A DNA stretch of 9,063 nt from a virus (lineage: Duplodnaviria > Heunggongvirae > Uroviricota > Caudoviricetes): IMG/VR virus record IMGVR_UViG_3300029121_000075; one strand, given 5' to 3'. A program made the translations under genes and the position numbers. This document shows, in pieces, positions 1 through 6,853 of this stretch; positions within the stretch are counted from its first letter, which is position 1, and each line of letters opens with the position of its first letter. A model generated the notes under the pieces. It saw only the letters and a list, made by a program, of their open reading frames with translations. It did no database searches and was not told the origin of the DNA.

Positions 1-465
1 GTGTCCATTAAAAATGATGGACATTATTTTTGTAGAGCCGGAGGAAACAGACCAGACGGTTTAAATGAGCCGGTTACGTTGATGCGTGATATTCAGATGG
101 TTCTTGAGCGTTGGGGAGCGTGGGCGGCTAATAATCATGAAGATGTGACCTGGTCGTCCATTGCCGCCGGTTTTAAGGGATTAATTACTTCAAAAGTAAA
201 ATCTCGCCCGCAATGTTGTGACGATGACGCGATGATCATTTGCGGGTGCATGGCCCGTCTGAAAAAGAACAACAGCGATTTGCACGATTTATTAGTAGAT
301 TATTATGTAGTCGGTATGACATTCATGTCACTGGCAGGTAAGCATTGCTGCTCTGATGGTTATATCGGGAAAAGGTTACAGAAGGCTGAGGGCATAATTG
401 AAGGGATGTTAATGGCATTAGATATCCGGTTAGAGATGGATATCGTTGTTAATAACTCTAATTAA
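1..465 (+). CDS. Late-gene antitermination protein Q (lambdoid, DLP12 QuuD-like type). Drawn from the GTG at the window edge; a more probable start is ATG 82 (127 aa).
   Basis: Frame is open from position 1. Cys-rich segments ([20 protein letters not shown]) fit a Q-type zinc-binding region. Sits immediately upstream of a convergent porin gene and the lysis cassette, as in DLP12 (quuD then nmpC). Identification is from memory of the family, not a search. Confidence 0.7.
19..77. repeat. Left arm of an exact 59-bp inverted repeat (partner 9005-9063)
   Basis: I reverse-complemented 19-77 by hand and it equals 9005-9063 base for base. Identity stops at 78 vs 9004. Possible extension into 1-18 cannot be tested because the partner would lie beyond 9063. 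Confidence 0.95.
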
Positions 466-653: not shown

Positions 654-1736
654 TTAGAACTGGTAAACCATACCTACAGCAACGATATCATCGGTAGCAA
701 CGCCAGATGCTTTCGTGAAATCGCTCTTATCAATCAGGTTGATTTTGTAGTCAACAAAAGTGGACATATTTTTGTTGAAGTAATAGGTTGCACCTACATC
801 AACATATTCAACCAGGTCCTGATCACCCCAAACACCCAAGTCTTTTCCTTTAGAATGCAGGTAAGCAACGGATGGACGCAGGCCGAAGTCGAACTGATAT
901 TGTGCAACAGCTTCGAAGTTTTGTGCTTTGTTGGCAATATGGTTATTACCAAAAACAGTCATGTTCTGGGTTTCAGAATAGGTGGTGGCCAGATAGATGT
1001 TGTTCGCATCATATTTCAGACCAGCTGCCCATACTTCAGCATTTTGACCAGAAGCATTCAGACCGTTGTTACCGTAGATAACCTGATTATTAGTGCGATC
1101 AGATTTAGCATAGGTTGCACCCACGCCGAATCCTTCATACTCATAAGTAGTTGAGAAACCGAAACCATCGCCATTAGCTTCAGTTACTTCATTTCGGTCA
1201 TTTTTGCCCTGATACTGAGCTGCAAAGTTCAGGCCATCAACCAGACCAAAGAAGTCGTTGTTACGATAAGTTGCAACACCTGTGGTGCGACCAGTCATGA
1301 ATACATCTGTTTGGGTCCAGGTATCGCCACCGAATTCTGGCAGAACGTCAGTCCACGCACCGATGTCGTATGCTACACCGTAGTTACGGCCGTAATCGAT
1401 TGAGCCGTAGTCACCGAATTTCAGGCCTGCAAATGCAAGACGGGTTTTGTCTTTGGAGGAACCTTGAGATTCAGCGCGGTTGCCTTTGAATTCATATTCC
1501 CACTGACCGAAACCAGTCAGTTGATCGTTGATTTGGGTTTCACCTTTGAAGCCAAGACGGGCATAAGTAGTATCACCATCATCTGCATCATTAGAGGAGA
1601 AGTAGTGCTTAGCATTAACTTTCCCGTACAGATCCAGCTTGTTACTGTCTTTATTATAAATTTCAGCTGCCTGAGCAGACATCGCCATCAGTACTGATGC
1701 AGCTACAGCAGAAATTGCCACTGTTAATTTTTTCAT
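654..1736 (-). CDS. nmpC: Outer-membrane general porin, OmpC/OmpF/PhoE family (prophage-borne NmpC/Lc/OmpD type)
   Basis: 360-aa ORF. N-terminal signal peptide [23 protein letters not shown] then AEIYNK. Porin hallmarks [32 protein letters not shown], and C-terminal aromatic end ...VGMVYQF. Placement between Q and the holin on the opposite strand matches DLP12 nmpC and phage PA-2 lc. Confidence 0.92.
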
Positions 1737-3880: not shown

Positions 3881-4130
3881 ATTAATATTAAATCGGATTA
3901 TTTTTAGCGCTGAATGTGAAATTTAAATAAAAAGGACTCTTCCATGAGTCAAAATCCTTGAAATCTTAAGGGTAAGATAAAAGGTCATTAGACAGAATGA
4001 CACGTTTTATTAATAAATAAAGCTATTGTTTCATTCGTGTGTTTTTCTTTACAAAAGTAATCCTTGCTATGGTTGGTTAATCATGCGTTAATGGTGTTCT
4101 GGTTTGTTACAAAATTATCTGAAGCAGTCA

Positions 4131-4243
4131 TTGTTATAATTTTATTATTTGTACCTCTTGAGATTTCCTTGTTGGTTTTTCTCTCTGATATTTTTTTTCG
4201 GACCATTCTGCCCAAGGGCTAACTTCTTCAAAAGGTAATAATG
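4131..4243 (+). promoter_or_regulatory. Candidate promoter and 5' UTR of the cold-shock gene
   Basis: Extended -10 TGTTATAAT at 4132-4140 in an AT-rich upstream region. UTR segment GCCCAAGGGC...AAAGGTAATA resembles the cspA upstream box plus SD. No transcript data. Confidence 0.3.
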
Positions 4244-4456
4244 ATGTCTAACAAAATGACTGGTTTAGTGAAATGGTTTAACCCTGAAAAAGGTTTTGGT
4301 TTCATCACGCCGAAAGATGGTAGCAAAGATGTGTTTGTGCATTTCTCAGCTATTCAGAGCAACGATTTCAAAACGTTAACTGAGAATCAGGAAGTCGAAT
4401 TTGGTATTGAGAACGGACCTAAAGGCCCTGCAGCTGTTCATGTAGTGACACTTTGA
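4244..4456 (+). CDS. cspI: Cold-shock protein, CspA family (CspI-like)
   Basis: 70 aa [38 protein letters not shown]... with RNP1 (KGFGFI) and RNP2 (VFVHF) motifs. SD AAAGG upstream. The ORF track begins one codon earlier at ATG 4241. Confidence 0.92.
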
Positions 4457-4660
4457 GGTAGAAAATATTACAAACCATATTCACTTTAGATGCCCGTGTT
4501 GCCATGGTTCTCAGTATAGAACATCATCTTTTGATGTTTCTGACAGAAATCCTTTCGGGGCAAAATGTATCTTTTGTAAATCAATGATGATTACATTTGA
4601 TAATATTTCACAATACTTAAATGTTAGCCATCTGTCGTTAGATTTAAGAAAGTGAAAATG

Positions 4661-5130: not shown

Positions 5131-5304
5131 ATGAACATTGAAGAGTTAAAAACAAAAACAGAAGCAGATATTTCTGAATATATAACAAAAAAAATCATTG
5201 AGCTTAAGAAAAAGACCGGGAAAGAAGTTACCAGTATCCAGTTTACTGCACGGGAAAAAATGACTGGTCTTGAAAGCTATGATATCAAGATTGATTTAAT
5301 CTAG
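5131..5304 (+). CDS. gnsB: GnsA/GnsB-family small protein (57 aa)
   Basis: MNIEELK...KTGKEV..I.FTAREKMTGLESYD.KI is the Gns family signature. SD GAGG at 5122-5125. The TTG-initiated extension back to 5038 in the ORF track is not supported. Confidence 0.85.
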   Translation: MNIEELKTKTEADISEYITKKIIELKKKTGKEVTSIQFTAREKMTGLESYDIKIDLI

Positions 5305-5366: not shown

Positions 5367-5392
5367 AAACCTCGTTTTTACGGGGTTTTGTT
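5367..5392 (+). terminator. Candidate intrinsic terminator downstream of the gnsB-like gene
   Basis: Hairpin CCUCG-UUUUUA-CGGGG (5370-5385), extendable by A:U pairs, followed by UUUUGUUAUAUUU. Confidence 0.35.
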
Positions 5393-5599
5393 ATATTTAA
5401 ACATTACCGAATAGATATAAATCTCGATTGTCGATGGTATTGGTTGTGTGACAATACCTAGTCTTTCCGGTATGCCTGAAGAGAATACAAACGACAGATT
5501 ATGTAAGGGAAACGCGCTGAAACTTTCACTCTTTCATGCTGAGTGATTTGACGTTATATTTTTAGCCGCAAGTGAAGAGCAAACGAATGGAGCGACAAA

Positions 5600-5806
5600 A
5601 TGCATAAAGATCAATACACTGATGCCCCCTCCCAGGAGCAGGTTCGTGTAAAAACTATGCTTAATAGCACCATTTCGATGGGTTACCCGGATGTTGTAAT
5701 TGCATGTATAGAACATCAAGTATCTCTGGAAGCATTCAGGGCAATTGAGGCCGCGTTAGTAAAGCACGATAAGAATACGAAGGATTATTCCCTGGTGGTT
5801 GACTGA
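5600..5806 (+). CDS. Hypothetical protein (68 aa), orphan ORF upstream of cos
   Basis: ATG preceded by GGAG at 5589-5592 (7-nt spacer). No transmembrane segment or recognisable motif. Positionally equivalent to the ydfO region of Qin, but I cannot confirm homology. Confidence 0.5.
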
Positions 5807-6175
5807 TCACCATAACTGCTAACCATTCTGACCATTTCACAAGTGACAGAGTCAATATCGTATTCTGTCACTGTAAGGCTAATACAGTACTGCAATTCAA
5901 CTACAGCAATGCCTCGTATTTAGGTGAATTTACAATATCGTCCAGTTCGGATGCCGGCTGCATTTCTGAAGATAAGGCATTTCGGTTCGCGTATTTTCCC
6001 CTCATGCTCGTCAGTCCTGCGCGTAGTAAGAAACAGGACACTCACACTAATTTGTGTGGGCATGCTGTGATGTCCTTCTGAATTATCCCCATGCCATTAT
6101 GTAACGCTCTGTTTCAGATGCTCGTCACGGTTGTCAGGCTGTCGGGTCCTCCCAGTGGGGGTCCCTGCCACGGGG

Positions 6176-6200
6176 CGGGAGCGTCGCGGAAAAAGGCTAG
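6176..6200. other. cosN-like cohesive-end site (terminase nicking site); predicted 12-nt overhang GGGCGGGAGCGT at 6183-6194
   Basis: ACG-GGGCGGGAGCGT-CGCGG aligns ungapped with lambda cosN ACG-GGGCGGCGACCT-CGCGG (13 of 17 core positions identical). Downstream GCTAGTTTTTGAAATTTC...TTCGTCAT parallels lambda GCTATTTATGAAAATTTTC...TTCGTCAT. Lies about 165 bp upstream of the small terminase start, as in lambda. Confidence 0.55.
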
Positions 6201-6237
6201 TTTTTGAAATTTCATTCGTCATCACCACCACTGTAAT

Positions 6238-6265
6238 AGATTGATATTACAGTGGTTTTATTTTT
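6238..6265. repeat. Perfect 11-bp inverted repeat with 6-bp spacer inside the AT-rich cosB-like region
   Basis: CCACTGTAATA-GATTGA-TATTACAGTGG read directly, followed by TTTTATTTTTATGG. Possible terminase small-subunit or IHF binding site, or an RNA hairpin. Confidence 0.8.
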
Positions 6266-6358
6266 ATGGTGTCGATTTTGATTGTTTTTTGTTCATCACT
6301 AACACCGTTTGCCTAAAGTTGTTCGCGAGATGCATGTTTAAAACATTCTGGAGCGGGT

Positions 6359-6853
6359 ATGGATCGAGAGTTAAAAAATCTGACGCTGAATATCAGTCAA
6401 CTGGCGGCACTGTCAGGTGTACATCGCCAGACTGCTGCGGCAAGGCTGCAAAATCTACCCGTTGCAGGGGGGCATGAAAGCAACCTCAAGCTTTATCGGG
6501 TGGTTGATATTGTGTCGGCATTTCTGGCATTGCCACCGCCGGTTGCAGAAGGCGAAATGGACGCGCATGAGCGCAAAGCCTGGTATCAGTCTGAACGTGA
6601 GCGTCTTAAGTTCGAACAGGAAACGGCACAACTCATTCCGGCCAGTGATGTCAGACGGGAGTTTGCCATCTGGGCAAAAGCGGTCGTGCAGGTGCTGGAG
6701 ACATTACCGGATATTCTGGAACGTGACTGCGGTCTGCAGCCTGCCGCTGTGAGCCGTGTTCAGTCCATTATTGATGATCTGCGCGATCAGATAGCCCTGC
6801 GGGTGACTGAAGCAGGTGCGGATGATGAGGAGGAATTACAGCAGGAGGAGTAA
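6359..6853 (+). CDS. Terminase small subunit (Nu1-like, winged-HTH DNA-binding)
   Basis: 164 aa. N-terminal HTH-like LNISQLAALSGVHRQTAAARLQNLPVAGG parallels lambda Nu1 (QLADIFGASIRTIQNWQEQGMPVLRGGG). Acidic C-terminus. SD GGAG 5 nt upstream. Stop overlaps the terL ATG (TAATG). Confidence 0.8.
   Translation: MDRELKNLTLNISQLAALSGVHRQTAAARLQNLPVAGGHESNLKLYRVVDIVSAFLALPPPVAEGEMDAHERKAWYQSERERLKFEQETAQLIPASDVRREFAIWAKAVVQVLETLPDILERDCGLQPAAVSRVQSIIDDLRDQIALRVTEAGADDEEELQQEE

Follow-up and report, generated by a model that had tools for sequence, protein, structure and literature searches.

The open reading frame (ORF) that precedes the cohesive-end site (cos) in the stretch of DNA analysed here (9,063 nucleotides in full length, hereafter called the window) is an orthologue of lambdap79 of phage lambda and of ybcW of Escherichia coli K-12, and it belongs to a gene common in lambda-like E. 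coli prophages. We regard it as virtually certain that this is a real gene and that its family assignment is secure; purifying selection, genomic position and fold class are established by the analyses below. The first-pass annotation had presented the ORF as an orphan without a known family, but its product proved to be a full-length member of PHROG 657, 79% identical to lambdap79/YbcW. The gene is thus already known and very common among lambdoid prophages, while still being formally 'hypothetical'. The finding is mainly an annotation correction, as the supposed orphan is among the commonest small genes of E. coli prophages and is found in lambda too. 

Family membership and coding evidence

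Profile searches, which had been proposed as a check, yielded a PHROG 657 match from end to end (residues 1-68 of 68 positions, E=4.6e-48, 162 bits). The absence of a known family therefore held for Pfam and NCBIfam, which have no models for this family, and not for PHROG. Scans of the ORF against Pfam, NCBIfam and PADLOC gave no credible family: an XFP_C match (E=0.043) was below threshold and was rejected, DUF3950 (Pfam PF13132) gave no match, and the PADLOC models returned 0 families for the ORF and for its two divergent homologues, P0208 and P0146 (see below). A PDB sequence search with the family profile gave no match either.

Using tblastn against phage genomes, we found a match in lambda at 47738-47941 with 79% identity, which corresponds to lambdap79 (NP_597782.1; 47738-47944), the final annotated ORF ahead of lambda's right cohesive end. 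Further homologues are present in HK629/HK630, mEp460, Tritos and others, and several of the records carry the label 'YbcW'. The protein encoded by ybcW in the DLP12 prophage of K-12 (b0559; locus L003, 5881-6087) is identical to lambdap79, and YbcW is therefore also 79% identical to the window protein, whose RefSeq entry is WP_000548593.1 (hypothetical). The core motif YPDVV(I/K)ACI...S(L/I)E(A/T)F(R/S)AIEA is present in the window protein.

We found the DNA of the ORF in 2008 of 5426 complete E. coli genomes (37%), at 2159 places. The genuine hosts are Escherichia, to which the NCBI name lines add Shigella. Only two members are truly divergent, P0146 (63 residues, 56% identity) and P0208 (68 residues, 39% identity, from Salmonella Glostrup), and 23 invariant alignment columns are kept in both of them as well. 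Searches for deeper homologues with P0208 and P0146 as queries returned only these two members, and scans of IMG/VR and metagenomes seeded with them found nothing further.

The first-pass annotation had hesitated between a complete small gene and the remnant of a larger one. Homologue lengths, surveyed in the best 120 of 1336 close relatives, peak at 67-69 residues, and genuine homologues span 63-69 residues, in keeping with the former and not with the latter. Alignment to part of a longer conserved protein, named beforehand as the sign of decay, was sought exhaustively with phmmer in 1.84 billion representative proteins; none of the 122 matches was a genuine longer protein with the domain, and the remnant reading is thereby refuted.

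Entries of 92-110 residues consist of a normal sequence followed by frameshifted read-through and come from ~3.5-kb contigs, which we presume to represent the control amplicon used in nanopore sequencing and derived from the right end of lambda. Nearly all 'divergent' or 'long' homologues (92-179 residues) were rejected on inspection as error-ridden copies of lambda sequence. Such reads populate the protein databases (P0027-P0101 and P0121-P0236 in our collection; loci L010-L043). The lambda ybcW allele also turned up in 'genomes' of Pseudomonas, Streptomyces, Cohnella, Flavobacterium, Bradyrhizobium and others; in the scan of species-representative genomes, these off-host alleles sit on 48.4-kb or ~3.5-kb contigs, and we take them to be contamination by lambda control DNA. 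The presence of this DNA, with its read errors, in deposited genomes accounts for the spurious long and divergent database homologues.

On the + strand, the ORF consists of an ATG, 68 codons and a TGA, and the translation given in the first-pass annotation was reproduced exactly. Its Shine-Dalgarno sequence was likewise as described, GGAG being followed by cgacaaa and then by the ATG; the segment CATGGAGCGACAAAATG, which contains this GGAG, is unchanged in six out of six aligned phage or prophage copies. With 56 ORFs of at least 40 residues in the window, ORF length alone carries little weight, and the reality of this one follows from its conservation, i.e., the PHROG 657 match, the open frame and the dN/dS of the core. 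Reading frame +1 is the sole frame open across all seven homologues. An antisense ORF at 5534-5719 was rejected, as stops break it in the homologues.

Variable sites in the core fall mostly on third codon positions (11, against 4 on first and 3 on second positions). We calculated dN/dS ratios by the Nei-Gojobori method with the seven phage or prophage copies and the two divergent ones. For codons 16-68, the ratio is 0.08-0.3 in most close pairs and 0.5-1.1 in the three least-diverged pairs, each of the latter resting on at most 6 substitutions. For codons 1-15 (5600-5644), it is ~1. In comparisons with the two divergent copies, each of which has its own Shine-Dalgarno sequence, dS is saturated and dN is 0.3-0.5. 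The helical core is under purifying selection (dN/dS 0.1-0.3), and the first ~14 residues change freely. Codons 1-15 occur as a few distinct allele types with intermediates, the remainder of the protein being nearly invariant.

Genomic setting and expression

The window derives from the late operon of a lambdoid, Qin-like E. coli prophage, and its positions 5400-6300 are 100% identical to NZ_CP151161. Along the window, the features are Q, porin, holin, DUF1327, lysozyme, DUF2514, cspI, ynfN, gnsB, the ORF, cos, TerS and TerL (Table 1), with a P21-type holin and an Rz-like DUF2514 gene in the group upstream of cspI. The porin gene, between Q and the holin gene, occupies the position of nmpC in DLP12, where that gene is disrupted by IS5. 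The ORF itself is found where the family is expected, on the strand of the late genes, after the lysis/moron region and ahead of cos.

Table 1. Coordinates of the main features of the window and of the 68-residue protein
Feature	Position	Strand	Remarks
Q antiterminator	1-465		
Porin moron	654-1736	-	Porin_1, E=3.5e-152; full-length general porin
cspA thermoregulator leader of the cold-shock gene cspI	4086-4502		RF01766, 107 bits
gnsB	5131-5304		After ynfN
Intrinsic-terminator-like hairpin	5367-5388	+	3' of gnsB; divides the ORF from the upstream moron genes
Conserved 5' leader	5436-5599	+	Homologous to the regions upstream of lambdap79 and ybcW
Shine-Dalgarno GGAG	5589-5592	+	7 nt 5' of the ATG, within invariant CATGGAGCGACAAAATG
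ybcW/lambdap79-family gene	5600-5806	+	68 residues plus stop
Conserved 3' flank	5807-5950	+	Kept with the ORF in lambda, DLP12, PhiR63_1, PhiR30_1, Tritos and an O55:H7 prophage
Hairpin GTGACAGA-N13-TCTGTCAC	5843-5871	+	8-bp stem invariant and loop variable in seven phage or prophage copies
cos	6144-6184	+	cosQ-like GGGTCCT at 6144-6150; cosN cut between 6172 and 6173
Small terminase subunit, DUF1441 type	6359-6853	+	Next + strand gene after the ORF
Large terminase subunit, gpA family	6853-8955	+	GpA_ATPase and GpA_nuclease
Predicted helices of the protein	residues 12-21, 30-38, 43-63		

The location just upstream of cos, noted at first pass, was confirmed, the cut being 366 nt past the stop codon of the ORF. 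The ends of the linear Tritos record (right end ...CCCTGCCACG, left end GGGCGGGAGCGTCGCGG...) align exactly to this cut, and the layout with the cosQ-like motif is as in lambda's right end. By analogy, the 12-nt cohesive end is presumed to be GGGCGGGAGCGT, at 6173-6184.

We considered 80 IMG/VR loci with a 99-100% identical allele. The upstream neighbour is gnsB in 77 of them; downstream, there is a DUF1441 TerS in 67 and YlcI with a Nu1-type TerS in 4. As it is found beside both DUF1441 and Nu1 TerS, the allele does not co-vary with the family of the small terminase subunit. A gpA-type large terminase subunit and a lambda-like cosQ/cosN are common to all contexts.

Alignment with lambda, DLP12, PhiR63_1, PhiR30_1 and Tritos showed that the ORF is part of one conserved unit, which extends in the window from ~5436 (164 nt before the ATG) to ~5950 (144 nt after the stop). 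The hairpin at 5843-5871 is devoid of a T-run; its stem shows no covariation and Rfam gave no match, the single, weak compensatory pair of the consensus fold lying outside the stem. For lack of stem covariation and of an Rfam match, we make no claim of an RNA element. These features nonetheless bear on the idea that the ORF is non-functional, either as the decay remnant of a larger gene or as a frame kept only by a cis-acting DNA or RNA element near cos, since among close relatives the two flanks are about as conserved as the ORF and the hairpin after the stop is invariant. We consider this idea barely credible. It is opposed by the absence of longer homologues among the 1.84 billion representative proteins and of an Rfam match, by a core dN/dS well below 1, by the maintenance of the frame at saturated dS in two divergent copies with their own Shine-Dalgarno sequences, and by the report that the lambda ORF expressed alone activates the Vulcan defence system (bioRxiv 10.64898/2026.09.04.749371).

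FNR and PdhR boxes of the ybcV-ybcW divergent region, whose positions we took from PMC1802558 and PMC7660256, are present upstream of the gene in lambda, DLP12, PhiR30 and Tritos. They are absent from the window and from PhiR63_1, both of which join straight to the gnsB terminator region in the alignment, and the conserved leader of the window begins just past the point where the lambda and DLP12 boxes lie. A promoter scan found no + strand promoter before the ORF. Given the missing boxes and the lack of such a promoter, the window copy is probably expressed mainly from the Q-modified late transcript, which would be expected to read through the hairpin at 5367-5388.

The literature on K-12 ybcW consists of omics-level data only. 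The gene has an FNR ChIP site upstream (PMC1802558) and is classed as FNR-activated. It is activated by ArcA (PMC3798270), bound by PdhR and down 8.9-fold in a pdhR mutant (PMC7660256), bound by Hha and induced 17-fold with Hha in biofilms (PMC2408971), and up 1.79-fold under microaerobic conditions (PMC8910356). As the K-12 orthologue has its own host-regulated promoter, the family is not exclusively 'late'. The gene might then be a lysogenic-conversion moron, expressed from the repressed prophage under host control in anaerobiosis through FNR and ArcA and benefiting the lysogen as bor does. In addition to the K-12 data, its neighbours, the known morons bor, ybcV, csp genes and gnsB, are consistent with such a role. 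We nevertheless find it unlikely, because the window copy, like most loci with this allele, has lost the FNR/PdhR operator region and is preceded by the gnsB terminator with no + strand promoter in the scan, because a satellite copy is part of a late operon for capsid proteins (see below), and because the literature reports no lysogen phenotype.

In the CRISPRi map of lambda (PMC10695390), p79 is non-essential and lies within the 27-kb pR' late mRNA; its scoring as essential in CRISPRi is explained by the roadblock being polar within this mRNA.

Structure and proposed function

The AlphaFold model of the protein is a small acidic three-helix bundle. Residues ~1-11 are predicted to be disordered, and residues 1-14 are variable. 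The structure-based search that had been suggested was run on this model and returned generic fold matches only. We found neither an HTH or RHH profile or fold match nor a basic surface; the protein is acidic and has no match to a DNA-binding fold.

The lambda orthologue is described in a September 2026 preprint as the trigger of Vulcan, an NAD-depleting abortive-infection system (a NIR-HEAT NADase). In all seven lambda-vir escapers of Vulcan, lambdap79 had been deleted, Qin being the probable recombination partner; toxicity resulted when lambdap79 and Vulcan were expressed together, which identifies lambdap79 as the activator (bioRxiv 10.64898/2026.09.04.749371). The Qin prophage of K-12 is devoid of ybcW, which fits a loss of lambdap79 by recombination with Qin. 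MG1655, the host in the Vulcan study, encodes a protein identical to lambdap79 in DLP12 and is not intoxicated by Vulcan alone. From this tolerance, we infer that DLP12 ybcW is essentially silent under the aerobic, 25 °C conditions of that study. The window allele has the helical core of lambda's in common and differs in the N-terminal tail. Prophages with this allele are predicted to be visible to Vulcan; as 9 of the 14 N-terminal residues differ from those of lambda, recognition should not be assumed.

On balance, we lean towards a dispensable accessory protein, produced late in this prophage, that binds a partner and whose binding surface is also seen by the HEAT sensor of Vulcan. The gene is complete and would be translated and non-essential; in lambda-type prophages with gpA terminases, it is the final one on the + strand ahead of cos. 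The window copy, on the late strand downstream of Q, holin, lysozyme and the Rz-like gene, would be made from the Q-antiterminated late transcript that runs across cos into the terminase genes. Its product is expected to be a cytoplasmic, acidic protein of 7.7 kDa, folded into a three-helix bundle and preceded by an N-terminal tail that is floppy and evolves fast. Catalysis or DNA binding would not be its mode of action; instead, it would bind a partner protein, probably one of the host, and the surface involved would expose it to HEAT-repeat immune sensors, e.g., Vulcan. Dispensability, membership of the late transcript and activation of Vulcan come from the literature on orthologues and would extend to the window copy by analogy. 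As the fold matches are generic, neither sequence nor fold points to a partner protein.

The position of the gene suggests another role, that of an accessory factor of packaging or head assembly that would assist or tune gpA-type terminases at cos and hence be kept by packaging-hijacking satellites. In all cases, no further + strand gene intervenes between it and cos, it shares a transcript with the terminase genes, and gpA-family TerL and lambda-like cosQ/cosN occur in all its contexts. Further support comes from divergent P0208, whose gene is flanked by E- and D-like capsid genes on one side and by cos-Nu1-gpA' on the other, in a ~10.2-kb element of Salmonella Glostrup (10,219 bp, L130) that is probably circular. 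The first part of this element harbours genes for an integrase, an AlpA-like protein, DUF4222, a DUF927 primase and PerC. They are followed by the capsid genes, one E-like (46% identical to a prophage major capsid protein) and one for a D-like decoration protein (38%), and by the YbcW-like gene, with a lambda-like cosQ/cosN ~45 nt past its stop. After cos come two ORFs that together make up a split Nu1 homologue (66% identity), and an ATPase-only fragment of gpA. Phage-inducible chromosomal islands (PICIs) of the EcCICFT073 cos type carry capsid and decoration homologues (PMC6092414), and the P0208 element matches their published description.

The satellite copy could reflect a functional link with packaging, or equally hitch-hiking on a captured ybcW-cos-Nu1-A' fragment, as the split Nu1 and truncated gpA of the element allow. 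Moreover, lambda without the gene still forms plaques, and the gene is missing from K-12 Qin, which has the Nu1-type nohA, and from a related E. coli PICI (L133, between roxA and phoQ), in which both the YbcW-like ORF and the YbcW-cos-Nu1 block are absent. An identical allele is found beside the two unrelated TerS families (DUF1441 at 67 loci, Nu1 at 4), and an acidic protein with no DNA-binding fold match does not readily fit such a role. We therefore deem a packaging function distinctly unlikely.

The other divergent copy, P0146, is on a Logan contig, with AlpA and Rep-like genes nearby. The E. coli matches to its DNA were rejected as satellite copies, being ordinary prophage ybcW genes; the copy in CFT073 was similarly rejected as PICI-borne, as it lies in a normal prophage.

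A more speculative proposal, which we regard as a long shot, is that the protein, far from being inert cargo or an arbitrary moron, might be a packaging-linked or counter-defence factor of lambda-type (gpA/cosQ-cosN) systems that PICIs purposely retain beside cos; the dN/dS of ~1 in its tail, against 0.1-0.3 in the core, might then reflect an arms race against Vulcan and similar immune sensors.

Comparison with known relatives

YlcI/YnfO proteins (DUF3950) resemble the window protein in being small and encoded beside cos, often adjoining ybcW in lambdoid prophages, but their sequences are unrelated, and their genes are on the opposite strand and absent from the window. In lambda, DLP12 and Qin, they are encoded by ORFs of their own on the minus strand, and Qin YnfO was accordingly rejected as a homologue. 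Between lambdap79 and cos, the minus strand of lambda harbours an unannotated 64-residue ORF (NC_001416 48109-48303; L002 3110-3304) that matches DUF3950 (YlcI/YnfO, E=1.9e-20) and has no counterpart in the window.

With PHROG 657, which is devoid of functional annotation, the match is full-length and we noted no difference. YbcW of DLP12 belongs to the same family and is encoded at the same place, before nohD; its gene is, however, part of a defective prophage and has a host-regulated promoter (FNR, ArcA, PdhR, Hha), whereas the window lacks that promoter region.

The surroundings of the gene in lambda differ from those in the window, with DUF1398 (lambdap78) and the FNR/PdhR boxes upstream, the DUF3950 ORF downstream and a Nu1-type TerS, against gnsB upstream and a DUF1441-type TerS in the window. 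The two proteins differ at 9 of their first 14 residues. Nevertheless, lambdap79 also has 68 residues and is near-identical to the window protein from residue 15; its gene has the same Shine-Dalgarno sequence, leader and 3' flank, and it is the last late-strand ORF before cos, as in the window.
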